From contig CM119372.1 in assembly GCA_051294905.1 (NCBI GenBank), positions 14,758,001-14,822,000 of the forward strand: a stretch of 64,000 nt of DNA, in the 5' to 3' direction. The DNA is from Botryllus schlosseri. Its lineage: Eukaryota. Positions within the stretch are counted from its first letter, which is position 1, and each line of letters opens with the position of its first letter. Below are positions 2,173 to 64,000 of the stretch, one piece after another. The translations under genes were made by a program, and so were the position numbers. The notes below the pieces were generated by a model that was not told the origin of the DNA, made no database searches, and worked only from the letters and a program-made list of their open reading frames with translations.

Positions 2173-4264
2173 GATTGTAAGTGAATTCATTCGCTGCATC
2201 TGCTTAGAATAAATCGATTGAAAGATTGACGAGACTAACTTCATCCCAGAAGTATAAAAGTCAACTTGAGCGCCTTCGCACAGGCGTTTTATGAACCTTG
2301 AGGTAGACTTTGAGGCCGAAATTTGATTCGATTCGTAGTGTCATCTTCGGCTCACACGTAGTGTAGTGATTTTTGTGATGTTCAGGCGAACGCTCCCCAC
2401 GAATTCCCGCCGACCGGAAATCCTTGGTTGCAGTCGTGACTTCATGGACGGATTACCTTCCAAATTCATCATCATTTCCGCTGGTTCTACGAGAAGCGTA
2501 TCTGTATCGTCAGTCTGACTGATGCCTACCTGGGCATTTTACGGCAGGCCGTAGCCACACGTAGCTCGGAATTTGAGAAATAAACCTTAATAATGGATGT
2601 GAATGCGCGGACTAAAACCATCGATTGTATAAACTAAGCCATAAATGCGTTTGCTTCAGGGTTACAATACGTCCTCTTTTAAGAGAATGTGTTCTCTTTT
2701 TTAAAAACTTTGGTTATATGTAGGTGGATATTCGACTGAGATATAAGAAATCAGTACTGTAGTAACGTTCCGGCGGGTATTTCGGGAGTTGAGCCGGTAA
2801 GTCGACTTTTTTTAGTCAACTAACGGAGAATTCAACAAAAGTGTATATTTCCGGAGTCGAGTCGGAAAAATGACCTTTTCAGTCAACCAACTACAAACTC
2901 GGAATATATTTACGATTTTTTTCGGATTTTACTTCGGTATTGTAAGTCTGAAAATTTTGAAAAAGTGTCCTCTTTTCAGATTCCCAAAATATGGTAACCC
3001 TTCACTTTGAAGCATGTTTATTTATGTACCATATTCGCATTCAATTGTTTACTTTTCACAGATATTTGTCCAACTTAGGCGACGCAAAAGCAATGGGCAT
3101 GAAAAAGGGAATAATCGCCGGCGCTAGTATCGGCTTTTTGTATCTGACCATGTTTTCGCTTTATGCCGTCGTGTTCTGGTACGGAGTGACCCTCGTCGTC
3201 GACGTGAACGATCCACTAACCGCAGGAGACATGATGGTCGTGTTTTTTTGTATTCTAATTGCGGCTTACTCCTTGGGGATGGTGAGTGGTCAGCAGTGAG
3301 ATTGAAGGCAATCGGCATACTAACGATCGATATGGTACATGAGTCGCGATTGGATGAACCACGGGGTGCAAGGCCTGGCCTATAATGCCCAAATGCCCAT
3401 TGATAGTTGTTTCGTAACGTAACACTTCCCGTTGATTTGTGCGCCGACGCATCTTACCTACAGATATCAAACGGATGAATACCTACTTACAGCTCAAAAA
3501 ACTTCATATAAGTAGCAAGGCGACTACGAATAATTTAACCATATGCTGGTAAAACAAGGCTTGCATAAAAATTAGAATAGCCATTGCATTTCAGGCTGGG
3601 CGTAATTTTGAGTACTTTTCCGCTGCTCATGCAGCTGGACAAAAGATCTTCTCGGTTATAAACCGCATTCCACCGATCGATATCTTCTCGGAAAAAGGAC
3701 TGAAACCCGGAGAAGTCAACGGCGAAATCGAAATCAGGAATGTCGATTTTACCTATCCGTCCAGACCGGGAGTGCGGGTATGTTTTATGGATAATTTTGT
3801 GCGCCTAATTGGAATCGCATTCAAAGAGGACTGAGCGAGTGACAGCACTTTCACTTCGGCGATGTATTAACGGCATCAACAAATGTGAAGTGTGTATTCG
3901 CGCATCTATTGCAATCATTGACTGCTGTCATGAAATTACTATTTACTGCATTTGGGAGGATAACAAAATGTGGATATCCATATCCGTGAAAGGGATGTCA
4001 AACAAACTGTGAGAACGGTCCATCTATCCTAGAATTTTTCATATTTTCAGTGTTAGGTTCCGATAAGGCCTGGGGAAAATTGTATTTTCATGTTATGGGT
4101 GGTCCAAAATGGACCGCATCAGTATTCTTCCTATCCATTCTGGCAACGCTGACATTTAGTGTAATCCTACTCCCTCGACGGCCCCGTAACCGGATCGTGG
4201 TCATCTCAACTCTGGCCAAACGGATATGCATTGACCGGACAAACAACATCTTGTGTTACATCAG

Positions 4265-4381
4265 GTTTTGCGAGATATCAGCTTCACCGCGAACCGAGGA
4301 CAAACGGTCGCGCTCGTCGGCCAGAGCGGTTGCGGAAAAAGTACCTGTGTCGAACTCATCCAAAGATTTTATGACGTGGAG
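4265..4381 (+). CDS. ABCB exon encoding NBD1 Walker A ([39 protein letters not shown])
   Basis: AG at 4263-4264 and GT at 4382; 117 bp in frame; last exon before the 19.2-kb intron. Confidence 0.9.
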
Positions 4382-4509
4382 GTACGCTTTTGAAGTGGCA
4401 AGCATCCGGTCGTATATGGGGTATGAAACCTGGCTGGCGTCAGCATAAGCAAATTGCTACGTCAGTTAAAATATAAGACGACGACAGTAGTTATATAGAT
4501 CGGTCGTGA

Positions 4510-4800
4510 GGTGGCAGGGGGTTCTTATGGGTGCGGCGGCACGGTGCCGAGAAACTCGTGGTGGCACGGTGACCCTTATCTCTTATGGGTGCGGTGACAC
4601 GGTGCCATTGTGTCTTATGGCGGGGGTGGCACGGTTACCTTTTCAGGTATAGGCTGCGGCGGCACGGTGTCGTGAAAACTCGTGGTGGCATGGTTACCTT
4701 TTCGGGTATAGGCGCGGTGACATGGTGACCTTTCAGGTAGAGATGATTTGACTAACGTTGTTGGTATAGGCGCAGCGGCACGGTGATGTATGGTAAATAG
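4510..4800. repeat. GC-rich subterminal motif array (GGCACGGTG-like) near the element end; mirrored at ~18065-18355
   Basis: At least 8 copies of G(C/T)G(G/A)CA(C/T)GGT(G/T) interleaved with TCTTATGGG and GGTATAGGC. Confidence 0.85.
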
Positions 4801-6679
4801 TCACGTGATTGGTACTTAGTTAATGTGTATATCCCAAATTATTATATATGACCGGTCCGAGTCGATCCCAACGTTTACGGTGAGTGCGACAATGATATAT
4901 CGTTATTCTTATGACCGCGGCGACACGGTTGCGTATCTGATATAGACGCGACATGATAACGTTACAGGTATAGGGATCGCTCACACGGTGTTACATGAAG
5001 ACGTCGTAGTTCAGTCGTGACAAATGACCGATCGTGTTCTAAGTCTTTCCTCGCTATTGATCGCTAGCTGAATAAGACTTCAGATCGGATTATTCGCACC
5101 CTGTATACCGCTGTTTCGCACCTACAGAATAGTCTGCTGTTCAAAGTCAAAACAAGAATCACAAGTATACACATTTATACATTCATTCATTACTGTCAAA
5201 TCAAACTAAAGCACGCACAATCGTATCATTAACTTTTTTTTTTTTACCATCACCCAAAATAATTCAAGTATTCCTTGGCTGAAAATCGTTGAGTCCTTAT
5301 TATCAAAAATGTTATGGTGCGGTGTCGGAATCCATTCGCAGGATGTACTAAAGGTAAATTCAGATAATCCACCCGCGATCGCTCACAAGATAATACCTAA
5401 GACATAACCATCGCTCGCGACTCGCTGTTACATACATACCGATCGTTAACAATGTAATATTTTGGTAATTGGTTTGCCACAGAGCCGGCGTAGACGGCGA
5501 TTCGAATACCAACAATAGCAGCGTTCACAAACCAACACTTCAAAAAACGCGTGAAATAGGTTACAAATCCCACGATTGCTCACAAGATAACACCAAAGAC
5601 ATAGCCATTTCTCGCGTCTTGTCATTACATACATCCCAATCGCTACAGTGTAATATGTCGGTGGTTGTTTGTTACTATCAAGTAATAAGTAATGAATAAC
5701 AGTACCAACGCAGACCGTGATTCGTAAACCAACAATTTGACACTTTCTGGCGGTCGCTATATGTTTTGACACTTTGGAACGTGGTTGACTTTAGTTGTAT
5801 GATAAGAATCATGCGAACATTCAAGCAATGTGTCAATTTGTCAACTTGAAATGAAACTTACTACACAGCTCAAGTTGATTCGTATCTGAATGTGTTAATT
5901 CGGTACAATTCTAATTAATTTGAGAAATGTTATCGTGATCTTTTGATTCGACCGTAACCTGAATATTACTGACGCCGACTTTCAGCCACATTGAATTATT
6001 CGCACATTCCGCGCCGCTGTTTTCACACCTATAGAATCAATACCAACTATAACTCTACAAGAATCAAGAATCACAAGTATGTGCATTATACAGTTATTGT
6101 CGTTGTCAACTTCAAATCAAACTCTTAATACAAACACACATCTTATCACTTGTCAACTCTATCATGAAAATCCTCGAACCTGTATTATTAAGAATGTTAT
6201 AGTACGGCATCGGAATCCACTCGCGAGATGTACTGAAGGTAAATTGAGATCACCCAAAATGAAATATTTGGACTTTGACATAGTCTGAATTGCAATAGAT
6301 TGACAAACATGACTACCAACTTTCAACCCATACATATTTAGAGATTATGCGCATGTTGATTTGAAACAAGTAATGACCATACAACTCTATTCACGACTGA
6401 GTTTTCCGTTTGTCAAATAGAGTTTCAGTAAATAATTTCACTGTACTATCATGATATTTAAATGTGCTACTACACACAATAGAATCAATCAATGAAATAG
6501 CACCTGTTGTAAATATTTCTTACTTGACAACCACTTGTACATACCGCGATCGAGTTGCGACACGATGAGTTAAATGGGAATATTTCCATCTATTTGTCGA
6601 AACCTTGTACAAGCTATCTGGTTATTTTTTCGTTGCAATTGAGTTAACGGAAATAGTATTACGTCTCGACATCTTACCA

Positions 6680-8615
6680 TCTTACCATACTCCAAAGAGC
6701 CAACAAGGAAAAACCTTGTCAAGTAAATCGTTTGTAACTCACCCAATCAACTCAATCAGTATCAGTATGAAAACAGTCAAGCATACACGAGTCCATACAA
6801 TCGCTACAATCTAAAATCCGTAGCAGGTTCGGTTTTAGGCATATACCGTCAACTCGTCTTTTTTGTTCAACTGTAAAAGTCGTTACTATTCTGCGAGACA
6901 AAGAAATTACTATGCGGTATATTTTGTAAGATAAAAGTAATTACTTCTCGGTGCCGGCGACTTGAGATTAACATAATACGTTTCAGTATGCGAGATTTGA
7001 AAGTCTGCCCAACATGTTGAGAATTCATTTCTTACAATCGAACGCAGGTGTTATATTGAAAATTATCATGATGTAAACATAAGGATTGACACATTGATTT
7101 GACACATGTAATAGTTGATCATGACTTGATTATTAAATTATTTGCGGTAATTAGACCCGGCGTTGTGGTAAAGATTATTGTGACAGCAACAAACTTTTCA
7201 GTACCATTGTTATTAACATATTGATTTGTAAAACTATACTTGTCTGAAATGTTCTTGATTTGGAAGATATTCCGTGTTGGTACAAATCACTCTGCGTATT
7301 GCGGATATCAGAAAATATTTTACAAATGTAATTGTTTCCAGTACCCAAGACTAAAGATGAAACAACAATTTCGTTTGCTGATTAACAACCGGTACAATAC
7401 TTTATCATCATAAGCCGCGGTGAGAATTGAAACCCTTTCGCGCATTACCCGGTGTCAAGATATCACACTAGGTGAATTGACATACCGCCGCTTGAATAAT
7501 ACCTAATCCGTTCGCACCATTTCACATACTTTGATCATTACAAAAGTAAATTGTGATATGTTTGTTAGATGCACCCAATTCAGTTAGAAATGTCTGGTGC
7601 ACAACAATTGTAATATCAAAAAAGTACTTGCTACACTGTTATTTGCTAAACGTGTTTTGCATTGTTGTTCATTTGTTGTATTGATTGAAATTGTTCTCGA
7701 ACCCTCAAATAATAATTCCTGACATGAAACCAAGCCGCTGAAAGTCGTTACCATCACGAAGATACAATGTGTACGATGTTTGTCAAATGTGTCCTACCTG
7801 GCCAACAGAAAACAATTTTCACTCACTCGAAATGAAACCAATGTGATGGTCTCCATTCGATATTTTGTTTGTGTCAAATACTTTGCAATGAACACATTTG
7901 CGTGGTTGAGCTTTACATCATCAAGCTGTTATTTGTAAATCAAGATTTCGGTAAACTTGTAAATGCATCGTTTAACTAACCGACATTTAGTGATTGGGGA
8001 ACATATCAGACGATACACATCCATCTCCGAAATACTGCATTGATCTTAATTTCCATCATCGTGATAATTGAAGTACATTTCTTTCGAATTCGTAACAACC
8101 GACTATGACATGATAAATTTTTGACAAGTTATGCTTGGTTGGAAGATTGGTTGGGTTGCATATCGCGAAAAAAATAATATACCACTCATATTGATACTGT
8201 TACTCCATTGATCGATATTTTCAAACGAGTAAAATTTATTACTTGAGTTTCCCCGCTTAATGTAAATGAAAACTCAACCGTCTTTTAACATCACAAAGAC
8301 ATTGATAAAAAGTAGGCAATCAAACACAACACTTTGTACGACACTAATTATTGTTCCACACATCTCATTTCATACTAAGTGTATACGAAAGATATTCATG
8401 ACACATGAAAATATTCCCATGCTACAAACCTGTACAATGAGTGGTGGTGCTTTCAAACTGTTTCGATATCACAAGAACTTTATTGTCTGAATGGGTGTTC
8501 ATGTATCTTAATAATCAAATAGTTCAACACAGAACTAGTACGAACAGAAACATCAGAGTTGTTTACACAAAAGTTTGTATGTGCACAGTATGCGAATACC
8601 ATGTGTAAGTCCAGC
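6680..8615 (-). pseudogene. Mirror copy of decayed pPolB relic, left arm
   Basis: Reverse complement of 14250-16185. Confidence 0.5.
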
Positions 8616-9539
8616 ACAATTGCGGTATCCATCCGAGTTTAGTTAACACAAATTTATTACAACGAACCACGTAAACTTTCGTCAAAGAAAAGCATACTCA
8701 CTTCCAGAGGGCTATGTCAACGCCATAGCAGTAAATCAGCTACTCCAACAAGAAAGTACATATGTTTTTTAGTCACGGTCCTTACATCTTTCACATAGAT
8801 CAATCTACTTTGCTAACGAAAAGTGCTGAGTCATCACATGATTGCCCTCACAACAAAACAGCTAGAAGATATTATCATACAAAAATATTCCTGACCCTTT
8901 GCGCACCAGTGACAAATCATACAACAAACATTTTTTGCGAGTCGAATTGTTGTTCAGTGTCAAGTCTACCTGTTGAAACGTACATTAAAACAACACAGTC
9001 ACAACTCAATTAAAACCACGAATCTATTTTCATTTCGTCACATATAGAAAAATAAATTTTCTTTCCCCAACACATACTTGTAACCAATCGCTTTCATTAA
9101 ACACACAACTCCATAAAAGTATTTACTTTCTACAACATAGACATTCCGATCTAGTCAAGAAATATTTTTATTAATCAAAATCATCGACTTCTGTTCGTTA
9201 GTGTGTGCATGTCATACCTGTGGGTCCCGTATTAAAATGGACACGACACGACTGAATGTAAGGGGTACAAGTCTATCGCATCGATTTACACGTGGTCTTC
9301 GCTACGGTTTCAAAAAACGAATCATCTCTTTTGCATTGATCGAGACCGAGCAAGTTAGTTAATGGCCATGATTGTGTTTGTCATATGCGAATAATAGGGT
9401 TACTGTCAAATCTACATACAACAACCTTCTGGCACTCATAATAGCAATTTCATTCTCTCCCTTCGTAATTGTATACTCACGACAAGTATATTGTACAACT
9501 CGACAGCTACGTTTAACAAGACCAACGACACTGAGCCCA

Positions 9540-9985
9540 CGACGTTTACCTATGTAAAATTACCACTTTCACTTGGCAGTCCATCGTTTACCTGACTAAA
9601 CATATCATTTTCCTTTGGAGATCTGACGTTTACCCAGAGTAAGAAACCATTTTCACTTGGAAATATATTTTTCCCTAGGTAACAAACCTTTTTTCACTTG
9701 GAAATATATTTTTTCCCCTGGTAACAAACCTTTTTCACTTGGAAATATATTTTTTCACCGGGTAACAAACCTTTTTCACTTGGAAATATATTTTTTCTCT
9801 GGGTAACAAACCTTTTTCGCTTGGAAATATATTTTTTCCCTTAGCAACAAACCATTTTCACTTGGCGGGTCGTCGTTTACCTGAGTAAAAATATCATTTT
9901 CCTTTGGAGATCTGGCGTTTACCCAGTGTAACAATACATTTTCTCTTGGTCATCTAGCTTTTCCTAGAGTAACAAAACCATTTTT
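9540..9985. repeat. ~40-bp minisatellite inside the palindrome arm (mirrored at ~12880-13325)
   Basis: About five close copies of TTTTCACTTGGAAATATATTTTTTCCCxGGTAACAAACC (~9645-9865) flanked by diverged copies. Confidence 0.9.
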
Positions 9986-10279
9986 CATTTTGAAATCTGA
10001 CAAACACACCTGACAATTTGGTATTTGTTGTATTGACGATAGTTTGAAATAGATTACAACGAACAGTGACGGAAATATACACGGGCTACCGGTTTCAGAG
10101 TATACCCCCATCAGTCGTATCACATCAATATCATCGATTAACCACATACAATATGCTCTTGTACACCGAAATGCATGTTTTGGAAAATCGGACTATAGGC
10201 TTCGATAGTTCTGTGATGTCCGGGATCGTGCTTTGGATTTTCCAGAGTCAAAATGTCTGAATAAAACACCTCCTCGACG

Positions 10280-10972
10280 ATGGTTGGTATGTGGATAACG
10301 GTGTTCGGAAAACGGTTGGATTTATGTCACCCATCGCGAGTTTTCCCCCCGCATGTTTACTATATTGTGTCTTTATTGGTCAATGTATGTCTCGACATTC
10401 AGTTTGAAATCGGAAACCCTGATAAAGTACGTAACCGGATCCGGATATCAACTCTGAATCGAAAAACCAATGAACAAAGTAAACATGCTACACCCTCTGT
10501 TTCCACGAAAAAATACCATCCAGACATACGTCGCGCTTGTTTGCCCACACCAGTATACGCGTAAATGGAGGTGTGTGACATTGCATGCAATGTGTTGGTA
10601 TACAAACATCGATCCACAGACATTATCATAGCCGGTAGTTTTGATGTAGATCGAATGTCACCTGATAACAATGTCATACCAATAAGCCACATTGCAATGA
10701 CTCTGGGTCTGCGCTATTACATCGATATTTCGACGCCGTTCACTGATTTACTCGATGGTGTTATCGTGTTGTTACATTGCAAGATAGTCATGACCCTATC
10801 TCCCGACAGATCACCCAGACCAATTGGATACATCGTCAATATCCGTCGTGTTGTCGACACCGAAATTTTCTGTTGTACAGCGTTTGACCAATGTGAACTA
10901 TCGAAGTACGGTGCTCGAAATGATTGCGATCAGTCTTTCACTAAATCACGGGATGTCGCTACTCCCACATAA
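10280..10972 (+). pseudogene. Possible decayed EEP (APE-like endonuclease/phosphatase) domain; mirrored at 11893-12585 on -
   Basis: Two abutting same-frame ORFs (10280..10564, 10565..10972) split by one stop; DIIIAGSFDVD resembles IIxGDFN, LLDGV resembles the LD motif, SPDRSPRPI resembles SDHxPI. Confidence 0.3.
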
Positions 10973-11653
10973 CGACTCCAGGTAAATATCGTGAACAGTG
11001 ATTCTGAAAATCTCGGACTGATACTGTGATCCAATAAGGTGTGTTTCTGTGGAATCTGCAATCGTACACCACAATAGAACACTACCTCGTGATTTCACAC
11101 GCAATCATAAAACACACTTTTGTAAGGGTCCAATTCGTCCGGTGACATTTCGAAACGGTCATCGCTACAAGAGATCGGGTTGGTCTCGTCATATCGGTAG
11201 CATTTTGACACTGTCATCACCACAAGGCTATTGACGTCGTTTCGGTTCGTCATGTCAATCCGTTTTATAATTTACCGTTTTTCAACTCCCCGCACCATAG
11301 TGTTACGACACAGACAAGAAGCATCGGTGGAAATAATAAAACACGGAAGGCACACTTTGGTGTTATTTGACATGGATTTTACACCAGACGAACCTCACAT
11401 TCGAGCGATGTATTTGAATGGCGATTGTATTATTGACATCGAAGGAAAAGAAATGTATCGATTTATCGGTTTCGTACATATCCAACAAAAACTTGGGTGT
11501 ATGATTGTGCACGGTTCACATATTTGACTGTGATCACAATATTGGTATGTACTGTAAAGTTCACTTTCTCTGTCAAAGGTAGTCGTGCGAATACCCATGT
11601 TATGGTTTCTATGTTTGTGTGTCCCATTCGAATTGTGTGTCCATTCGAATTTG

Positions 11654-14600
11654 GTGTCAAAATGCTACCGATATGACGAGACCAACCCGATCTCTTGTAG
11701 CGATGACCGTTTCGAAATGTCACCGGACGAATTGGACCCTTACAAAAGTGTGTTTTATGATTGCGTGTGAAATCACGAGGTAGTGTTCTATTGTGGTGTA
11801 CGATTGCAGATTCCACAGAAACACACCTTATTGGATCACAGTATCAGTCCGAGATTTTCAGAATCACTGTTCACGATATTTACCTGGAGTCGTTATGTGG
11901 GAGTAGCGACATCCCGTGATTTAGTGAAAGACTGATCGCAATCATTTCGAGCACCGTACTTCGATAGTTCACATTGGTCAAACGCTGTACAACAGAAAAT
12001 TTCGGTGTCGACAACACGACGGATATTGACGATGTATCCAATTGGTCTGGGTGATCTGTCGGGAGATAGGGTCATGACTATCTTGCAATGTAACAACACG
12101 ATAACACCATCGAGTAAATCAGTGAACGGCGTCGAAATATCGATGTAATAGCGCAGACCCAGAGTCATTGCAATGTGGCTTATTGGTATGACATTGTTAT
12201 CAGGTGACATTCGATCTACATCAAAACTACCGGCTATGATAATGTCTGTGGATCGATGTTTGTATACCAACACATTGCATGCAATGTCACACACCTCCAT
12301 TTACGCGTATACTGGTGTGGGCAAACAAGCGCGACGTATGTCTGGATGGTATTTTTTCGTGGAAACAGAGGGTGTAGCATGTTTACTTTGTTCATTGGTT
12401 TTTCGATTCAGAGTTGATATCCGGATCCGGTTACGTACTTTATCAGGGTTTCCGATTTCAAACTGAATGTCGAGACATACATTGACCAATAAAGACACAA
12501 TATAGTAAACATGCGGGGGGAAAACTCGCGATGGGTGACATAAATCCAACCGTTTTCCGAACACCGTTATCCACATACCAACCATCGTCGAGGAGGTGTT
12601 TTATTCAGACATTTTGACTCTGGAAAATCCAAAGCACGATCCCGGACATCACAGAACTATCGAAGCCTATAGTCCGATTTTCCAAAACATGCATTTCGGT
12701 GTACAAGAGCATATTGTATGTGGTTAATCGATGATATTGATGTGATACGACTGATGGGGGTATACTCTGAAACCGGTAGCCCGTGTATATTTCCGTCACT
12801 GTTCGTTGTAATCTATTTCAAACTATCGTCAATACAACAAATACCAAATTGTCAGGTGTGTTTGTCAGATTTCAAAATGAAAAATGGTTTTGTTACTCTA
12901 GGAAAAGCTAGATGACCAAGAGAAAATGTATTGTTACACTGGGTAAACGCCAGATCTCCAAAGGAAAATGATATTTTTACTCAGGTAAACGACGACCCGC
13001 CAAGTGAAAATGGTTTGTTGCTAAGGGAAAAAATATATTTCCAAGCGAAAAAGGTTTGTTACCCAGAGAAAAAATATATTTCCAAGTGAAAAAGGTTTGT
13101 TACCCGGTGAAAAAATATATTTCCAAGTGAAAAAGGTTTGTTACCAGGGGAAAAAATATATTTCCAAGTGAAAAAAGGTTTGTTACCTAGGGAAAAATAT
13201 ATTTCCAAGTGAAAATGGTTTCTTACTCTGGGTAAACGTCAGATCTCCAAAGGAAAATGATATGTTTAGTCAGGTAAACGATGGACTGCCAAGTGAAAGT
13301 GGTAATTTTACATAGGTAAACGTCGTGGGCTCAGTGTCGTTGGTCTTGTTAAACGTAGCTGTCGAGTTGTACAATATACTTGTCGTGAGTATACAATTAC
13401 GAAGGGAGAGAATGAAATTGCTATTATGAGTGCCAGAAGGTTGTTGTATGTAGATTTGACAGTAACCCTATTATTCGCATATGACAAACACAATCATGGC
13501 CATTAACTAACTTGCTCGGTCTCGATCAATGCAAAAGAGATGATTCGTTTTTTGAAACCGTAGCGAAGACCACGTGTAAATCGATGCGATAGACTTGTAC
13601 CCCTTACATTCAGTCGTGTCGTGTCCATTTTAATACGGGACCCACAGGTATGACATGCACACACTAACGAACAGAAGTCGATGATTTTGATTAATAAAAA
13701 TATTTCTTGACTAGATCGGAATGTCTATGTTGTAGAAAGTAAATACTTTTATGGAGTTGTGTGTTTAATGAAAGCGATTGGTTACAAGTATGTGTTGGGG
13801 AAAGAAAATTTATTTTTCTATATGTGACGAAATGAAAATAGATTCGTGGTTTTAATTGAGTTGTGACTGTGTTGTTTTAATGTACGTTTCAACAGGTAGA
13901 CTTGACACTGAACAACAATTCGACTCGCAAAAAATGTTTGTTGTATGATTTGTCACTGGTGCGCAAAGGGTCAGGAATATTTTTGTATGATAATATCTTC
14001 TAGCTGTTTTGTTGTGAGGGCAATCATGTGATGACTCAGCACTTTTCGTTAGCAAAGTAGATTGATCTATGTGAAAGATGTAAGGACCGTGACTAAAAAA
14101 CATATGTACTTTCTTGTTGGAGTAGCTGATTTACTGCTATGGCGTTGACATAGCCCTCTGGAAGTGAGTATGCTTTTCTTTGACGAAAGTTTACGTGGTT
14201 CGTTGTAATAAATTTGTGTTAACTAAACTCGGATGGATACCGCAATTGTGCTGGACTTACACATGGTATTCGCATACTGTGCACATACAAACTTTTGTGT
14301 AAACAACTCTGATGTTTCTGTTCGTACTAGTTCTGTGTTGAACTATTTGATTATTAAGATACATGAACACCCATTCAGACAATAAAGTTCTTGTGATATC
14401 GAAACAGTTTGAAAGCACCACCACTCATTGTACAGGTTTGTAGCATGGGAATATTTTCATGTGTCATGAATATCTTTCGTATACACTTAGTATGAAATGA
14501 GATGTGTGGAACAATAATTAGTGTCGTACAAAGTGTTGTGTTTGATTGCCTACTTTTTATCAATGTCTTTGTGATGTTAAAAGACGGTTGAGTTTTCATT

Positions 14601-17600
14601 TACATTAAGCGGGGAAACTCAAGTAATAAATTTTACTCGTTTGAAAATATCGATCAATGGAGTAACAGTATCAATATGAGTGGTATATTATTTTTTTCGC
14701 GATATGCAACCCAACCAATCTTCCAACCAAGCATAACTTGTCAAAAATTTATCATGTCATAGTCGGTTGTTACGAATTCGAAAGAAATGTACTTCAATTA
14801 TCACGATGATGGAAATTAAGATCAATGCAGTATTTCGGAGATGGATGTGTATCGTCTGATATGTTCCCCAATCACTAAATGTCGGTTAGTTAAACGATGC
14901 ATTTACAAGTTTACCGAAATCTTGATTTACAAATAACAGCTTGATGATGTAAAGCTCAACCACGCAAATGTGTTCATTGCAAAGTATTTGACACAAACAA
15001 AATATCGAATGGAGACCATCACATTGGTTTCATTTCGAGTGAGTGAAAATTGTTTTCTGTTGGCCAGGTAGGACACATTTGACAAACATCGTACACATTG
15101 TATCTTCGTGATGGTAACGACTTTCAGCGGCTTGGTTTCATGTCAGGAATTATTATTTGAGGGTTCGAGAACAATTTCAATCAATACAACAAATGAACAA
15201 CAATGCAAAACACGTTTAGCAAATAACAGTGTAGCAAGTACTTTTTTGATATTACAATTGTTGTGCACCAGACATTTCTAACTGAATTGGGTGCATCTAA
15301 CAAACATATCACAATTTACTTTTGTAATGATCAAAGTATGTGAAATGGTGCGAACGGATTAGGTATTATTCAAGCGGCGGTATGTCAATTCACCTAGTGT
15401 GATATCTTGACACCGGGTAATGCGCGAAAGGGTTTCAATTCTCACCGCGGCTTATGATGATAAAGTATTGTACCGGTTGTTAATCAGCAAACGAAATTGT
15501 TGTTTCATCTTTAGTCTTGGGTACTGGAAACAATTACATTTGTAAAATATTTTCTGATATCCGCAATACGCAGAGTGATTTGTACCAACACGGAATATCT
15601 TCCAAATCAAGAACATTTCAGACAAGTATAGTTTTACAAATCAATATGTTAATAACAATGGTACTGAAAAGTTTGTTGCTGTCACAATAATCTTTACCAC
15701 AACGCCGGGTCTAATTACCGCAAATAATTTAATAATCAAGTCATGATCAACTATTACATGTGTCAAATCAATGTGTCAATCCTTATGTTTACATCATGAT
15801 AATTTTCAATATAACACCTGCGTTCGATTGTAAGAAATGAATTCTCAACATGTTGGGCAGACTTTCAAATCTCGCATACTGAAACGTATTATGTTAATTT
15901 CAAGTCGCCGGCACCGAGAAGTAATTACTTTTATCTTACAAAATATACCGCATAGTAATTTCTTTGTCTCGCAGAATAGTAACGACTTTTACAGTTGAAC
16001 AAAAAAGACGAGTTGACGGTATATGCCTAAAACCGAACCTGCTACGGATTTTAGATTGTAGCGATTGTATGGACTCGTGTATGCTTGACTGTTTTCATAC
16101 TGATACTGATTGAGTTGATTGGGTGAGTTACAAACGATTTACTTGACAAGGTTTTTCCTTGTTGGCTCTTTGGAGTATGGTAAGATGGTAAGATGTCGAG
16201 ACGTAATACTATTTCCGTTAACTCAATTGCAACGAAAAAATAACCAGATAGCTTGTACAAGGTTTCGACAAATAGATGGAAATATTCCCATTTAACTCAT
16301 CGTGTCGCAACTCGATCGCGGTATGTACAAGTGGTTGTCAAGTAAGAAATATTTACAACAGGTGCTATTTCATTGATTGATTCTATTGTGTGTAGTAGCA
16401 CATTTAAATATCATGATAGTATAGTGAAATTATTTACTGAAACTCTATTTGACAAACGGAAAACTCAGTCGTGAATAGAGTTGTATGGTCATTACTTGTT
16501 TCAAATCAACATGCGCATAATCTCTAAATATGTATGGGTTGAAAGTTGGTAGTCATGTTTGTCAATCTATTGCAATTCAGACTATGTCAAAGTCCAAATA
16601 TTTCATTTTGGGTGATCTCAATTTACCTTCAGTACATCTCGCGAGTGGATTCCGATGCCGTACTATAACATTCTTAATAATACAGGTTCGAGGATTTTCA
16701 TGATAGAGTTGACAAGTGATAAGATGTGTGTTTGTATTAAGAGTTTGATTTGAAGTTGACAACGACAATAACTGTATAATGCACATACTTGTGATTCTTG
16801 ATTCTTGTAGAGTTATAGTTGGTATTGATTCTATAGGTGTGAAAACAGCGGCGCGGAATGTGCGAATAATTCAATGTGGCTGAAAGTCGGCGTCAGTAAT
16901 ATTCAGGTTACGGTCGAATCAAAAGATCACGATAACATTTCTCAAATTAATTAGAATTGTACCGAATTAACACATTCAGATACGAATCAACTTGAGCTGT
17001 GTAGTAAGTTTCATTTCAAGTTGACAAATTGACACATTGCTTGAATGTTCGCATGATTCTTATCATACAACTAAAGTCAACCACGTTCCAAAGTGTCAAA
17101 ACATATAGCGACCGCCAGAAAGTGTCAAATTGTTGGTTTACGAATCACGGTCTGCGTTGGTACTGTTATTCATTACTTATTACTTGATAGTAACAAACAA
17201 CCACCGACATATTACACTGTAGCGATTGGGATGTATGTAATGACAAGACGCGAGAAATGGCTATGTCTTTGGTGTTATCTTGTGAGCAATCGTGGGATTT
17301 GTAACCTATTTCACGCGTTTTTTGAAGTGTTGGTTTGTGAACGCTGCTATTGTTGGTATTCGAATCGCCGTCTACGCCGGCTCTGTGGCAAACCAATTAC
17401 CAAAATATTACATTGTTAACGATCGGTATGTATGTAACAGCGAGTCGCGAGCGATGGTTATGTCTTAGGTATTATCTTGTGAGCGATCGCGGGTGGATTA
17501 TCTGAATTTACCTTTAGTACATCCTGCGAATGGATTCCGACACCGCACCATAACATTTTTGATAATAAGGACTCAACGATTTTCAGCCAAGGAATACTTG

Positions 17601-18378
17601 AATTATTTTGGGTGATGGTAAAAAAAAAAAGTTAATGATACGATTGTGCGTGCTTTAGTTTGATTTGACAGTAATGAATGAATGTATAAATGTGTATACT
17701 TGTGATTCTTGTTTTGACTTTGAACAGCAGACTATTCTGTAGGTGCGAAACAGCGGTATACAGGGTGCGAATAATCCGATCTGAAGTCTTATTCAGCTAG
17801 CGATCAATAGCGAGGAAAGACTTAGAACACGATCGGTCATTTGTCACGACTGAACTACGACGTCTTCATGTAACACCGTGTGAGCGATCCCTATACCTGT
17901 AACGTTATCATGTCGCGTCTATATCAGATACGCAACCGTGTCGCCGCGGTCATAAGAATAACGATATATCATTGTCGCACTCACCGTAAACGTTGGGATC
18001 GACTCGGACCGGTCATATATAATAATTTGGGATATACACATTAACTAAGTACCAATCACGTGACTATTTACCATACATCACCGTGCCGCTGCGCCTATAC
18101 CAACAACGTTAGTCAAATCATCTCTACCTGAAAGGTCACCATGTCACCGCGCCTATACCCGAAAAGGTAACCATGCCACCACGAGTTTTCACGACACCGT
18201 GCCGCCGCAGCCTATACCTGAAAAGGTAACCGTGCCACCCCCGCCATAAGACACAATGGCACCGTGTCACCGCACCCATAAGAGATAAGGGTCACCGTGC
18301 CACCACGAGTTTCTCGGCACCGTGCCGCCGCACCCATAAGAACCCCCTGCCACCTCACGACCGATCTATATAACTACT
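11654..18378. repeat. Right arm of giant inverted repeat (6,725 bp)
   Basis: Reverse complement of 4486-11211; identical mirrored ORF translations in the ORF track. Confidence 0.97.
14250..16185 (+). pseudogene. Heavily decayed protein-primed family B DNA polymerase (pPolB) relic, right arm; 5' limit approximate
   Basis: Motif ghosts in the expected order, needing frameshifts: FEGSRT 15156-15173 (~FxGGRT); DIT..LC.PDI 15248-15276 (~DxxSLYP); GIIQA 15362 and HRVM 15411 (~G.IK...HPVLP); N-PGL 15701; Y-ETYYVNF 15877-15901 (~YxDTDSVIF); DK....LFG-Y 16145-16178 (~DKR...PFGY). Recognised by eye, not by HMM. Confidence 0.5.
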
Positions 18379-18896
18379 GACGACTCCTCGGTCCCTTGAT
18401 TTTAGACCGGTTCTTCTTGATGCGGATCAATTAATGATTCAGCGAATACGATATCCACCAGCTTTCTGGTATGTGGCATATATAGTCAAAGTAATCACAG
18501 GAACTCTCGTGCACCATGCGCAAGACGCACATGAACTTCACATTTCATAGGTGGTTTTCCGTATCTAAAATTATAAAACAATAATTTTGAATGACGATGT
18601 AGGCTACAATCTATCTACCAGTATGGTGAATGTGGATGCTAAATACTCTTCGCTGAACAGTTACTGTCTCTTTGAGCTGGTTGTTGTTGTCATTATTTTC
18701 AGTGCGTTGCGACACTATTGACCGATGCAATTTCTTGTATAGGTTTCTGCATTGCAATACTGCACTGCAATACAATATTACAATAGATATATAACTAGAG
18801 CTGGACACTATGACTAGAGTACTCGCATCTAAATCCAGTATTAATTCTAGTGTTGAGAGATGATTTTATCTAATACTGAAATCGTACGCTCTAAGC

Positions 18897-21371
18897 CAGG
18901 GGTCGCCAACACGCGGCCCGCGGGCCGCATGCGGCCCGCGAGGTCATATTTTGCGGCCCGCGAACCCATTTGAAATTTTGAATGAATACCGAGTAAATAA
19001 TATTGAAATGCTGAAATTAATTCCAGTTTCAAAATGTTGTTGTTGATCAAAATAATCTATTCTCATGTGACCTACATTATTTTCACTCACTCGTTGAAAA
19101 CGCATTGGCGATGGTAATTCCAGTCCCTCGAGAGATGATCAGCTGATAGGAAGTGGTACACTTGGTGACGTAATAATGGACCAGACATTGACAATGATCG
19201 AGACGCATAGGCCTACAAACAGTTCGATACTTCCTCACCTCATACGCGTACTAGGTGAGTTGTAGTCTGGAATCGTGTTTCTCGCGATTTTTCTTCCCCA
19301 CATACTTACGATGCCCAAAAGAAAGATATCGGACGAGAACAGGACATTTCAGGAAATATGGGAACTGAACTATTTCGTTTCAGAGTGCAACGGCCAAATA
19401 CAATGTCTGGTCTGCTATTCTACCATTGCTGTCCGAAAGGAATACAATGTTCGTCGCCACTATGAGTCTTTACACAAGGATAAGTTTCAAGACTATACCG
19501 GAAAACACCGTGAACAGAAGTTGACGCAACTGAAGAATTCTTTGAATAAGCAGCAGAGCCACTTCTCAAATCTGAAAAAAGCAAATGAACTGTCAGTTAA
19601 AGCCAGTTTTGCCCTATCTGAAATGATAGCGCAGGACTCGAGACCATTTGTCGAAGGAAATTATGTGAAGCGATGTCTACTGAAGGCTAGTGAAATATTA
19701 TGCCCAGAAAAGATCAAGCTCTTCGAGGACGTCAGTCTTTCAGCCAATACAGTTGCTCGTCGTGTTACGGAATTGGCTGCAGACTCGTATCAACAACTAT
19801 CATCAATTGGAAAGGATTTCCAATCATTTTCATTGGCACTGGATGAGAGTACCGACATCACCGACAGCGCTGTCTTGGCTGTATTTGTCCGTGGAGTCGA
19901 CGGAGATTTTAACGTCACCGAGGAACTTCTGGATGTTCTGCCAATGAAAACTACGACGACAGGGCGAGACATATTCCGCGAGCTGAACAAATGTGTCGAC
20001 CATGCCGATTTGGATTGGTGTAAGCTGGTCTCAGTAGCCACCGATGGAGCTCCAGCAATGAGGTCAGAAAAAATAGGCCTAGTTGGGCTTCTACGAAACA
20101 AGATGACGACATTAGGCGTTCCTATCCATGCCATACATTGCATTATACACCAAGAGGCATTGTGTAGTAAATATTTGGGAATGAGTGGTGTTATGAACGT
20201 AGTAGTGAAAACCGTGAATTTCATTCGCTCGAGGGGCCTGAATCATCGTCAGTTCAAAGCTTTCTTAGAAGCCACCGAGAGTGAGTATGGCGAAATATTA
20301 TACCACACGGAAGTGCGATGGCTCAGTCGTGGTAATGTGCTGAGACGTTTTTTCGCATTGAGAGAAGAGATTGGTTTATTCATGGCGCTGAAAGATGCAG
20401 ACGTGCCAGAGTTGGGAGACGCACAATTCATTTCTGATCTTGCGTTTTTATGCGATATTACGGCACATCTGAACGATTTAAACACTACATTACAAGGTCG
20501 AATGAAAGTTGTAACTGCGATGTACGATTCAATCAAATCATTTATGCGCAAACTGATGCTATGGACAAAGCAACTTGAAGTCGGAAACCTTGCTCATTTT
20601 GCAGCTCTCCGGTCGTTGACAACAGTCGAGCTCGAGAATATGAAGCAATATTCTGGTAAACTCATGTTGTTGAATACGGAATTCAATTCAAGATTTCAGG
20701 ATTTTAAGACTCTGGAAAATGAACTTGATCTTTTTGCTACGCCAATGACTATTGATGTCGAATCAGTCACCGAGGAATATCAAATGGAACTGTTGGATCT
20801 CCAATGTGACTCGGCAATGAAGGAAAGGTATTCGGAAGTAGCCTTGCCAGAATTCTTCAAGTACTTACCGCAGCATAAGTTTCCGAAGCTTTCTTCGCAC
20901 TTCCGGAAGATCCTCGCAATGTTTGGCAGTACGTATGTCTGCGAGCAATTTTTCTCGACCATGAAAATAAATAAATCAGCCTTACGCTCGCGACTAACAG
21001 ATGAGCATCTCAAAGCAATTTTGAGACTTGCGAACCAACGCTCCATCAGCCCTGACATCGATTCTTTAGTCGCTAGAAAGCGTTGTCAGGTCTCAAGCGC
21101 CGCGTATAATTAAATCATATTTGAAGTGATGATCATGATGTTTTTTTTCGTTGTATGGAAATTTCGGTAATAAACAATGTTTCTTTTGTCGTAATTACAT
21201 GCCTATGGCCACGTTAGGAAGTGCACGATGATGTAGTAGACTCAGTAGTGTTTCATAAACATGCTTTCTAAGCTGTATGGCGTGTTTATCTCGATACTAC
21301 ATTATTGCGGCCCGCGACCTCTTGCAAGTCTAAAAAGTGGCCCGCGACCCCTTTTGAGTTGGCGACCCCTG
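18897..21371 (+). mobile_element. Apparently intact autonomous hAT transposon, Buster/Charlie/SPIN-like, 2,475 bp
   Basis: 14-bp TIRs CAGGGGTCGCCAAC/GTTGGCGACCCCTG; 8-bp TSD CTCTAAGC (18889-18896, 21372-21379); subterminal GCGGCCCGCG repeats; one uninterrupted transposase ORF. Confidence 0.95.
19311..21113 (+). CDS. hAT transposase (GTF2IRD2/SPIN/Buster-like), ~600 aa
   Basis: Likely start MPKRK at 19311; zinc-finger-like CLVC...RRHYESLH, LALDESTD, VATDGAPAM, HCIIHQE, EVRWLSRG, and C-terminal FGSTYVCEQFFS dimerisation motif. Confidence 0.95.
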   Translation: MPKRKISDENRTFQEIWELNYFVSECNGQIQCLVCYSTIAVRKEYNVRRHYESLHKDKFQDYTGKHREQKLTQLKNSLNKQQSHFSNLKKANELSVKASFALSEMIAQDSRPFVEGNYVKRCLLKASEILCPEKIKLFEDVSLSANTVARRVTELAADSYQQLSSIGKDFQSFSLALDESTDITDSAVLAVFVRGVDGDFNVTEELLDVLPMKTTTTGRDIFRELNKCVDHADLDWCKLVSVATDGAPAMRSEKIGLVGLLRNKMTTLGVPIHAIHCIIHQEALCSKYLGMSGVMNVVVKTVNFIRSRGLNHRQFKAFLEATESEYGEILYHTEVRWLSRGNVLRRFFALREEIGLFMALKDADVPELGDAQFISDLAFLCDITAHLNDLNTTLQGRMKVVTAMYDSIKSFMRKLMLWTKQLEVGNLAHFAALRSLTTVELENMKQYSGKLMLLNTEFNSRFQDFKTLENELDLFATPMTIDVESVTEEYQMELLDLQCDSAMKERYSEVALPEFFKYLPQHKFPKLSSHFRKILAMFGSTYVCEQFFSTMKINKSALRSRLTDEHLKAILRLANQRSISPDIDSLVARKRCQVSSAAYN

Positions 21372-35143: not shown

Positions 35144-37241
35144 CAGGGCTGTGGAGTCGGTAAATTTTACCACCGACTCCGGCTCCGACTCCGACTCCAC
35201 ACATTTTCAATATACCGACTCCGACTCCGACTCCGACTCCTGAGTCTTTAAATGTACCGACTCCGACTCCGACTCCGACTCCTGGGTCTTTAAACGTACC
35301 GACTCCGACTCCGACTCCCGACTCCGACTCCAGCATTATTACCAATTTACTTCGAAAATTATATGCCACATTGTCGGTTGAAAGACTATCATACAACCAT
35401 TAAACATATGCAAACATATGATTAACTGTGGCATGCTAAATTGTTTCATTGTGGCACAGCTCGAATTATCCACTATGCAATTAACAGGAAATACAGATTT
35501 GCTAAATATCCTTCCTTATTCATGTTTTTATAACATGGACTCTCTAGTATCCTGAAATGTATGAATAATTCAAATATGGCAGATATCCAATCCTATATAA
35601 TAAAAATGTAGATAAAAAATCCAAGTGTAGCTCTTGTGTATGACTCGGCAACTAATAAAGAAATTGAACTTACTCATTGCACACTATCTATCCTGATTAC
35701 AAGCACAAACACTCTTACTACTAATAATAGACATTGGTCATAAATGGAATTTAGTTAAGTAGTCAAAGACCATAGCCTATGTCTAGTCTACATGTACTTA
35801 ATCAAAGTATTCAAGGATTGGGACTAGCAGTCTTTCTTAATCATTTGTTCGACCCAAACAGCTAAGCTACACTACAAATATTTTTAATTTTGTCAAGTGG
35901 GAAGCATCGTTTGGTCATATTTACACCATTTTCACAATTTTACGAAACCAGCCGATGCATTTTCTCTGTCACAGTATCATGATATAATTCCAAAAATTGC
36001 ATCAATTTTGAATGCATCGCGAAAACGCATCTTGCGATTTTCTTCCCATCTGCAACTGAGTTGTAATTTGCAAGTAATGTCTAATCTATATCAGGGGTGG
36101 GCAACTTTTTCGGCGAAAGGGACACCTGAGATTTACGAACCATTGCGCGGGCAACTGGAATGTTGATAACCTTTTCTTAGTCATCGATAGGAGCGAACTG
36201 AATTAGGTAACATTGCAAACAAGACTTATATTAATACGCTCTAAAATTGATAACAATATGTCATGCAACCGTGCAGTGCGCAGTCAGGCCCTGGTTGCGC
36301 GAAGCGCGAAATTTTTTTGCAAGATAACGACTGAATTAGGCTATAGCTATATCAATAAATATGTCGGTAACATACATTGGGGGTCGCATCTGTACTGTAT
36401 ACCACTTGGGCTCATTTGGCTAGGACAGGATTATTCGACGTTTAGACATAGCAAAATCGACGGTATCAGTGAACATGCCTCTATCATTTTGTGCAAATGT
36501 TTTGTCGACGATCTCGCTGCGAGTGCACAAGCGAAGCCGTATCTCCTAATTGCGAATATAGTTAGACTCAATTCTGTGAATAATATGTATTAATAATTTT
36601 CAGAAGGGGGCTCAAATACTGAATGCAAGAAATCTAGTGACAATGAATCATGCGAAGTAGCCTACCGAGAAAAATTTCAAGTCAAATAAATCTGCTATGA
36701 AATATTCTACTTCATGGTCATATAAGAAGATCTGGGATAAATGTGGCTGACCCCTGGATACGTCAATGCGTCAGAACTGTTGTTTTAGTCATCATCAAAT
36801 TTCGCAGTCATGCTAATCAAATTTTGGTTGGCCTTGCAATTGTACCTGATGTCATAAATAATTTCGAGAAATACCTCGCAGGCCACACCTAACCTTCTCG
36901 TGTGCCAAATTTGGCCTGCGTGCCACGGGCTGGCCGCACCTGATCTGTATGGTTAATAATAATAGTGATTGGTGGTACATAAAAATTCTATTGAAAATTC
37001 TTTGAAAGCAAATGTTTTCATGATAGAGAAGTTGGAGTCGGAGTCGGAGTCGAAGTCATAGTCATTCTCACAAACTCCGACTCCGACTCATGTCAGTATT
37101 TTCCCACCGACTCCGACTCCGACTCCGACTCCAGCTATTATAGTTTTCACGACTCCGACTCCGACTCCGACTCCATCAAGCGAAAATTACCCCGACTCCG
37201 ACTCCGACTCCACCGACTCCGACTCCGACTCCACAGCCCTG
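35144..37241. mobile_element. Non-autonomous hAT-type element with (CCGACT)n subterminal arrays
   Basis: TIR CAGGGCTGTGGAGTCGG/CCGACTCCACAGCCCTG; 8-bp TSD GTTAACAC. Confidence 0.9.
36092..36942. mobile_element. Nested hAT MITE
   Basis: CAGGGGTGGGCAAC...GCACCTG; TSD ATCTATAT/ATCTGTAT; similar to 25665-26515. Confidence 0.75.
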
Positions 37242-46268: not shown

Positions 46269-47655
46269 CAGTGTTGGGATCAAGTCACTACCTTCGAGTC
46301 ACGAGTCATCTCGAGTCATTGCACATTTTGACTCGAGTCAAGTCAAGTCAATCGATTTTCAAAGGTGACTCGAGTCAAGTCAAGTCACTTGTTTTTTGGA
46401 GGTGACTCGAGTCAAGTCAAGTCAAGTCAAGTCAAGTCACGAGTCAAGTCACAATTCAAGTCAAATTGAATTTTCGAAGTATGAGTGATCATTTTAATTC
46501 ATTATATTTTACTAGCTGTGTTCAAGAGATCAATTGGTCATTTATCCTGAATCAAATAACGAATTAACGAAGTTAAATATACATGCAAAAATGCGTTGTA
46601 TCGCTCACGCACACGTAGAACTGCTAATAAAACAAGTACGTAACTGTATAGCTACATCAGGGGTGTCAAACATACGACCCGCCAAATGATTTCATTCGGC
46701 CCGCGAAGAAACTCTGAGTATATGTTGAAAATTGCGTGATTTTATCCAACACATTTCTCGAATTTGTAGTATGAAATACTACTAATAAATATTTATTCAA
46801 GATAGCAAATTTCGAGTATGTTCATAGGCCACATTATAACAACCCGACAGCGGAGTTGTGATTGTAGTTATCGTCAGGAGAAAATCGCTGACATTAACAC
46901 CCAATTCCGAGAATGCGAAAAAGTGCATATATTGAGTTAGGTCTGTTAAAAGTTATTAATATTTTGGAATCATTTGACTGGTGCGGCCCGCAAGTGATCT
47001 GTAGGCCTATATTTGAATTCGATCCGCGACGTCAGTTGAGTTTGACAGCTCTGAGCTACATGCTATACATTCTCTCAGTATCAGCCAAAATTGAGGATCG
47101 AATACGAAGCCTCGAGAAGATGAAAGAAATTGATATCGTACAATACACTAGCCATCTATACACATCCGTGAGGATATAAATTCATAAAATATATTTGTTA
47201 GATTTAAATCATACAAGAGGGTTGGTAAAGGTGAGCGCCGTGCAATGTGAGCAAAGAGCCGTCCAATAAACAGCGATACGTTGCTATTAAATTAATCTGC
47301 TACTACGACAACGCAAGCTGTGATCATTTCGTATGCGGTCAGTGTATTTGTGATGTAATAATGTAGGATCAGTGAAACGTACAATCAGTGAATGACTGGT
47401 TGCTCTCACAAGTTACAACGGCGTATCGTGAATAATCCGAACATGCACAATGATTTAGTCGACACCGTTTACTTGATGACTTGAAATTGACTCGTAAATT
47501 TTGCTCCGAGTACGAGTCAATCCACATTTTTGAAGCGCCGAGTCAAGTCAAGTCAAGCCATTTTTGCAAAATGACTCGAGTCAAGTCAAGTCATTCGAAA
47601 AAGTTGACTCGAGTCTGACTCGAGTCAAGTCATGACTCGAGTCATCCCAACACTG
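46269..47655. mobile_element. MITE with (AGTCA)n/GACTCGAGTC arrays; second inverted copy from 63430 runs off the window
   Basis: TIR CAGTGTTGGGAT/ATCCCAACACTG; TSD CAATAAAC/CAGTAAAC. Confidence 0.85.
46658..47053. mobile_element. Nested hAT MITE
   Basis: CAGGGGTGTCAAAC/GTTTGACAGCTCTG; TSD AGCTACAT. Confidence 0.85.
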
Positions 47656-47856
47656 CAGTAAACCAGCTCACACTTGGTAGTTGTAGCGTGTCTGCTGTTA
47701 GAATTCAACAGAAACACAAATCCCCATCTACTAAGTAGGCTATTTACACTTTCAGATATCATTCCATTGCGTTAGATGAGCTTAACGCTACTCCACGAGT
47801 ACGTATGTTATTCGAAGTGGTGGCGAAGAGCAAAAGAGTCTCCACACATTTGTCGG

Positions 47857-63429: not shown

Positions 63430-64000
63430 CTGTGTTGGGATGACTCGAGTCATGACTTGACTCGAGTCAGACTCGAGTCACTTTTTCGTATGACTTGACT
63501 TCACTCGAGTCACTTTGCTAAAATGACTTGACTTGACTTGACTCGGCGTATCAGAAATATGGATTGACTCGTGACTCGGAGCAAAATTCACGAGTCAATT
63601 TCAAGTCATCAAGTAATCGGTGTCGATAAAATCACTGTATCTTGCGCATGCTCGGATTGTTCGCGAAACGCTGGTGTAACCCGTGAGAGCGACCAATCAT
63701 TCAATGATCGTGCGTTTTACTGAGCCGCCATTGTTCCATCACAAATATATTGATCGCAAACGAAGTGATCGTAGCTTACAGCCTACGTTGACGTAAACTA
63801 TAGTATGGTTAAGTAATTTAATAGCAAAAGGTATATTTCTGTTCTGTGTTCTTAACCTAACCAAACCTCTTGTTTTCTTGTTTAATTGAAATTGAATTCG
63901 AAAATAGTTTATATAGTCCTTAACCACAGCAGGCTCGAATTGTATCATATCAATTTGCAAAAGGGTGATGTATTGCATCTTATCAATTCGTTTCTCTGTT
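63430..64000. mobile_element. Inverted copy of the 46269-47655 MITE family, truncated by the window end
   Basis: GTGTTGGGATGACTCGAGTCATGACTTGACTCGAGTCAGACTCGAGTCA is the reverse complement of ~47605-47653. Confidence 0.85.

Follow-up and report, generated by a model that had tools for sequence, protein, structure and literature searches.

A near-perfect inverted repeat of 13.9 kb occupies positions 4486–18378 of a 64,000-bp stretch of the Botryllus schlosseri genome (GenBank assembly GCA_051294905.1, contig CM119372.1, positions 14,758,001–14,822,000 of the forward strand; hereafter the window, to which all coordinates refer). The palindrome has the termini and target-site duplication of a Maverick/Polinton element, and its arms were equalised recently, because this copy's minority letters are present in both arms at all 24 sites listed, against two arm-specific substitutions. 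We favor the reading, to which we assign a probability of about 0.55, that the palindrome is a Maverick satellite dependent on a helper, in which snap-back copying renews the arms. The integrase of a putative helper Maverick is the likely agent of its recent insertion at this site.

The palindrome was the dominant inverted repeat on self-comparison of the window. Its left arm (4486–11211, plus strand, 6,726 bp) starts with (AGT)2 and its right arm (11654–18378, minus strand, 6,725 bp) ends with (ACT)2, with borders set by self-comparison and exact alignment. The arms enclose a strandless spacer, or loop, of 442 bp (11212–11653) and account for 97% of the element. The hexamer GACGAC is present without change on both sides (plus strand, 4480–4485 and 18379–18384), with a rough chance figure of ∼1e-4 for such a duplication, and a contig of flank depth from sequencing run X17 departs from the window right after 4485. 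An exon of a host ABCB-type transporter gene lies just 5′ of the element (4265–4381, plus strand, borders from AG/GT); it carries the Walker A motif. The next ABCB exon is at ∼23615 and exon order is kept across the element, so the palindrome is intronic in a collinear gene.

Global alignment of 4486–11211 with 11654–18378 revealed three differences in all. The sole indel is a run of T12 (5234–5245, plus strand) facing A11 (17620–17630), and the two substitutions pair 6443 with 16422 and 6966 with 15899. The arms therefore differ by 0.03% (2 substitutions in 6,726 bp; 95% interval 0.004–0.11%). Both substitutions are transitions in the same direction, although with n = 2 the direction is not significant. 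An earlier note on this DNA, made by eye, had listed exactly these three differences, the shared direction of the two transitions and a pristine target-site duplication, and on all three points it was correct.

Part of the stretch was present in 21 of the 24 sequencing runs listed, and four of these (X1, X5, X16, and X17) were aligned over 4000–11653. Of the 40 variant rows listed, from a total of 540, the flank accounts for 14, the arm for 24 and the loop for 2. Each of the 24 arm rows is a site where this copy has the minority letter of the family, and at every one of these the two arms agree. Twelve of the 24 letters are rare, defined as a residual depth below 1.5% in X1 and below 0.5% in X17, an approximate class since third letters are included and contigs drop rare variants. 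Several of these rare letters have a residual depth 12–55 times that of the flank in X1. If the 12 rare letters had originated arm by arm, ∼24 differences between the arms would be predicted; two were seen, for which the probability of two or fewer is 1e-8, or 5e-4 at a mean of 12. The last equalisation of the arms falls within roughly the latest 4–8% of the path of this copy from the family majority. The earlier note had proposed copy-specific mutations present in both arms as the mark of homogenisation, and that is the pattern obtained. The left-arm partners of 16422 and 15899 are absent from the listed minority sites, which suggests a right-arm origin for the two substitutions, as C-to-T changes on one strand (n = 2).

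The same note had described the genes of the element as eroded almost beyond recognition. We found nothing to bear this out. No Pfam family was detected in any of the six frames of arm plus loop, translated with X at stops and searched at E values up to 1, whereas the neighboring transposase gave five. None of the 11 open reading frames (ORFs) of at least 80 amino acids in the element passed a Pfam cut-off or matched PHROGs at an E value below 0.08, and they yielded sub-threshold matches only. The longest stop-free stretch in the element is 135 amino acids (P = 0.28 against a Markov null), and stop-free stretches of at least 80 amino acids number 10 against an expectation of 7.6 ± 2.5, which is the chance level. 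A period-3 signal was present in 2 of 30 windows within the element; the counts were 3 of 40 for non-coding controls and 7 of 7 for the neighboring transposase. Calibration indicated that the power of this test fades at 5–10% decay, such that very old decay escapes it. Among the 12 family indels listed (79 others lie beyond the listing) none was a multiple of three. Thus no core gene (protein-primed polymerase, integrase, ATPase, protease, or capsid) was detected in the element by six-frame Pfam search and ORF length, and no recognisable broken remnant of one was found by Pfam, PHROGs, candidate matching or a one-frame phmmer search of 7654–11253. Ancient coding decay is not supported by any of the searches, which neither demonstrate nor rule out an old coding origin.

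A faint coding-like signal was confined to one stretch, 10280–10972 (plus strand), where ORFs of 94 and 135 amino acids lie in frame with one stop between them and without a homologue. Family indels at 10508 and 10671 shift its frame, and the 235-amino acid plus-frame read-through gave no match among 110 candidates. The 135-amino acid ORF was rejected as a gene; its best atlas score was 0.81 and its model had a predicted local distance difference test (pLDDT) value of 41. The inner 1.7 kb has a deficit of stops on the minus strand (z = −2.7, where a control region reached −2.0) and one period-3 window at p = 0.01. The phmmer search of one minus frame of 7654–11253 against 1.84 billion proteins returned six unnamed matches. 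A real minus-strand gene was rejected as their explanation, as no Pfam family exceeded its cut-off and several of the matches have tryptophan opposite TGA. Five of the six also switch frame relative to the window. They are gene calls on other copies of the family.

The element belongs to a very abundant family. All 30 bins were covered in all four aligned runs. Summed element-bin depth was 27,000–990,000 in X17, against 46 in the flank contig, and 28,000–506,000 in X1, against 14, an excess over the flank of hundreds to tens of thousands of times; these sums are not convertible to copy number. One 139-nt contig in X17 had a depth of 5,288, ∼114 times that of the flank. On a cautious reading the family has hundreds of arms. 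The six database ORFs likewise derive from other family copies. Many copies share the gene-less body, and the family is in this respect a non-autonomous Maverick derivative. On the favored reading the young arms pose no conflict with ancient decay, since the family spread in the absence of core genes. The earlier note had offered as alternatives that a gene-dead lineage multiplied or that the arms were homogenised; the outcome of its own test favors homogenisation, the other branch is partly right as well, in that a lineage lacking core genes reached very high copy number and the junction of this copy looks newly made, and the two are not alternatives. The paradox it drew between near-identical arms with an exact target-site duplication, which stand, and decayed genes, which no search supported, mostly dissolves, because genes are dispensable to a non-autonomous element and a clean target duplication is usual for a young insertion.

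This insertion is itself likely recent. A 2,257-nt contig of X17, with a depth of 46.2, aligns to 4000–4485, beyond which a further 745 letters have no alignment to the element, whereas the element contigs shown in that run are no longer than 330 nt. X17 thus appears to carry an empty site at 4485. The terminal 18-mer had no match in viral contigs and the terminal 20-mer none in metagenome contigs. Run X5, labelled organism B, holds the family with nearly the same variants as well as host flank at a depth of 2.7, and could come from a mixed sample or from a closely related organism. Horizontal transfer was not inferred from runs labelled as metagenome or as another organism, X5 being one that also holds the host flank.

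The junction at which the element folds back seems to have been moved in the lineage of this copy. Depth drops ∼3-fold after 10655 in X1, X17, and X5, with no step at 11211, suggesting that most arms in the family end earlier than those here. Two of the database ORFs from other copies, P0003 and P0005, traverse the loop on the minus strand. Their N-termini consist of four residues that match the plus strand of the arm at 10790, followed by approximately seven residues absent from this copy; four matching residues would arise by chance with probability 0.003 within a 300-bp zone, and 0.16 such matches are expected anywhere. These N-termini suggest that other copies fold back near 10802, ∼410 bp earlier, with an arm of ∼6.3 kb and a loop of ∼0.84 kb. 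By this evidence and the depth step, 10803–11211 (plus strand, ∼410 bp; mirror ∼11654–12062), which is arm here, would be loop in other copies. A likely rebuilt junction is found at 11624–11658 (plus strand), where a 30-nt filler that includes a 17-bp tandem duplication is followed by 5 bp (11654–11658). These five bases fit both the repeat unit and the end of the arm at 11207–11211, a 5-bp microhomology, and fold-back junctions are described as typically having 2–8 bp of inverted microhomology (PMC3907307). Filler and microhomology are likely the scar left when re-priming slipped, the left arm was copied and ∼410 bp of former loop became part of both arms. A 10-bp inverted match between 11540 and 10675, at one time considered as the usual fold-back point, was dropped in favor of the P0003/P0005 junction and may be due to chance.

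A mechanism that would account for these features begins with the protein-primed polymerase of the helper, which would displace a single strand able to fold into a 6.7-kb stem with a small loop. A strand that stopped or broke at or before the end of the loop could then prime on the opposite arm and copy its partner, with the consequence that a new mutation would come to lie in both arms or in neither while the lineage still drifted from the family. In the lineage of this copy one such priming may have slipped, producing the filler, a shorter loop and arms extended by ∼410 bp. The duplex would then have integrated in the ABCB intron, with the two substitutions and the one run-length change arising during or after that step. 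A single-stranded racket intermediate copied by a protein-primed polymerase has been drawn for Mavericks from sequence analysis (PMC4196379), and the adenovirus panhandle intermediate is a comparable published model (PMC9863843).

Several observations weigh against this mechanism or reduce its reach. The X16 profile lacks the depth step (ratio 0.5). The alternative junction comes from four residues in two related ORFs with identical N-termini, and so would count as approximately one modest observation. The rebuilt junction speaks for templating of ∼410 bp only and not of the whole arm, and the strand-change joint 11653/11211 is not among the 15 of 252 joints listed, a listing unranked by depth. 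The helper is putative, and so is palindromy across the family as a whole. Rarity is an approximate quality of the 12 letters, given that contigs drop rare variants and residual depth counts third letters, and the empty site in X17 is judged from the length of the unaligned continuation.

Other processes could in principle equalise the arms. Mismatch repair by the host in the stem of the displaced-strand hairpin, in place of re-synthesis of an arm and with the odd junction as a separate one-off event, predicts the same sharing of rare letters, and it predicts similar divergence of arm and loop, as was found (24 listed sites in 6,726 bp versus 2 in 442 bp). It leaves the filler, the microhomology and the longer arm unexplained, and our literature search found no passage on sequence conversion in adenovirus panhandles, its presumed precedent; we regard it as rather unlikely. 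Unlikely, too, is equalisation at the chromosomal site once the element had inserted, through gene conversion between the arms or break-induced copying of the type discussed for Y palindromes and Streptomyces terminal repeats. The 99.97% arm identity equals that given for human palindrome P6 (PMC8600007), break-induced copying is described as extending and homogenising terminal repeats (PMC7205883), Galileo elements are reported to draw internal sequence into their repeats (PMC3573991), and conversion in place would leave the target duplication intact. However, the insertion, apparently absent in X17, looks too young to have gained and converted 12–24 changes, and rare letters at 12–55 times flank depth in X1 suggest sharing with sister copies and hence an origin before this insertion.

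An improbable history is that a non-palindromic derivative with long-decayed genes folded back once, very recently and in this copy only. The newly made appearance of the junction would fit such an event, as would the faint coding-like signal of the inner 1.7 kb (z = −2.7; the one period-3 window at p = 0.01) and a RING-like fragment (E = 0.005, below the Pfam cut-off). P0003 and P0005 imply instead that folding back, at another point, occurred in other copies too; no more than one contig in each run passes the ends of the aligned stretch, which is explained by the left-flank record, with no non-arm continuation past 11653 counted; and no gene remnant could be named in the searches made. Least probable of all is an assembly artefact in which the sequence of one arm overwrote, or was used to polish, the other. 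A collapse would also place rare letters in both arms, and only 0.74 of the sampled words are present in X1. Against this, the mirroring ends at the end of the element, where there is a direct 6-bp duplication, two substitutions separate the arms, the host gene is collinear across the element, and an independent run breaks at the same base, 4485. Renewal of the arms by snap-back copying is the reading that we retain.

The loop contains an intact ORF of 91 codons (11252–11527, plus strand) that is predicted to be all-β. It has one database relative, at 85%, in a cluster of two, and no relative was found among longer proteins. The predicted fold has eight strands (pLDDT 66, from a two-row alignment), with no Foldseek match at E = 0.001 and no clear structural counterpart. 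Its atlas score was 0.90 with low recognition; the best VIA Z was 4.9, and the Pur-alpha rows, at Z 4.5 and 4.1, offer no more than a weak lead. No sign of selection on the ORF was found in antisense amino acid change in P0003, which at 12 of 91 across the ORF is no lower than the 7 of 51 adjoining. The RING finger-like fragment (PF13920) lies at 11398–11664 on the minus strand, antisense to this ORF, and its cysteine pattern is lost in P0003 and P0005.

The arms carry several smaller repeats. Dispersed 26-bp repeats of two families occupy a subterminal segment (4523–4932, plus strand; mirror 17932–18341) and are likely binding sites for a protein. Depth at 4512–4767, near the end of the element, is several-fold below that of the interior, with many skip joints, and most copies seem to carry different subterminal arrays. 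Internal duplications at 5280–6256 (plus strand) pair 5280–5371 with 6165–6256 and 5372–5474 with 5569–5670, each at 79%. They are old, and the joints 5371>6256 and 6175>5291 in family contigs of the sequencing runs fall at them. A tandem array with a 41/42-bp unit lies at 9543–9984 (plus strand; mirror ∼12881–13322). The depth profile of X16 differs from the others in being enriched over the inner arm (10144–11167), which may be transcribed if X16 is RNA.

Outside the palindrome, the ABCB-type transporter gene is full-length (∼3061–39900 of the window) with two nucleotide-binding domains, and its second ABCB signature is LSVGQ and not LSGGQ. In the same intron, 512 bp from the palindrome, is a young-looking hAT-type transposon (18897–21371) with an 8-bp duplication, CTCTAAGC, and an uninterrupted ORF of 615 amino acids with zf-C2H2_12 and hAT dimerisation domains. 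Short repeat families at 35164–37232, 46302–47661, 63432–63777, 59463–59613, and 29506–30275/57024–58159 are probably small non-autonomous transposons; they include CCGACT arrays, TGACTCGAGTCA arrays, a 150-bp palindrome and dispersed inverted copies.

More tentatively, the palindrome may represent a class of heritable snap-back satellites of Maverick viruses: whole-element hairpins with hundreds of germ-line copies, in which the arms would be regenerated at each round of replication, the fold-back point occasionally reset and perhaps one gene for a small β-sheet protein kept in the loop. If so, the family would preserve in the genome a trace of the single-stranded racket intermediate proposed for Mavericks, and mutations entering both arms together with shifting fold-back points would make that model testable by comparison of copies within one assembly. 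Arm identity in such an element dates the last templating event and not the age of the element. Perfect palindromes of several kilobases are usually unstable in genomes, and the persistence of this one at high copy number, here in a transporter intron, is notable for that reason.

The termini place the element with the Mavericks/Polintons, for which an (AGT)2//(ACT)2 or (AG)3//(CT)3 terminal motif and a 6-bp target duplication have been reported (PMC8097293). Besides its (AGT)2//(ACT)2 ends and exact 6-bp duplication it has terminal inverted repeats and a size within the 12.7–24.6-kb range given for these elements (PMC8097293, PMC4196379). The repeats, however, are 6.7 kb here compared with 46–1,447 bp in the intact vertebrate elements described (PMC8097293), and the palindrome is not an autonomous Maverick, lacking detectable core genes and any stop-free stretch longer than 135 amino acids. 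The longest Maverick repeats that we found in print, ∼2 kb, are those of butterfly polintons, which also reach far inside the element (10.1101/2025.02.07.637071). The butterfly repeats are described as containing hexon and protease genes and as flanking a long unique core, whereas those of the palindrome are more than three times longer and contain no named gene (10.1101/2025.02.07.637071).

Resemblances to other systems are partial. The snapback subgenomes of adeno-associated virus (AAV) are likewise self-complementary and helper-dependent derivatives, built from a single end of the genome of a DNA virus, and have a loop that varies in size (PMC8235507), but they are described as transient parvovirus particles, while the palindrome is an integrated and inherited member of an amplified genomic family. 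Non-autonomous copies of Galileo/Foldback elements also consist almost entirely of long repeats with internal tandem arrays, and their repeats grow by recruiting internal sequence (PMC3573991). Galileo, however, belongs to the P-element superfamily, has a 7-bp duplication and has repeats of at most ∼1.26 kb that are ∼95% alike in the longest copy reported (PMC3573991); the palindrome, with its 6-bp duplication and no transposase found within it by six-frame Pfam search, is not a cut-and-paste element of that kind. Streptomyces terminal repeats and human Y palindromes share with it the extension or homogenisation of arms by arm-templated copying and an identity of ∼99.97% (PMC7205883, PMC8600007), but these are chromosome ends or fixed old loci and not mobile high-copy elements. 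No published report of a whole-element palindromic Maverick was found in the titles and abstract openings searched, a scope from which subscription literature mostly falls outside. The copy described here gives direct evidence that its arms were equalised, together with a fold-back point that was likely reset.

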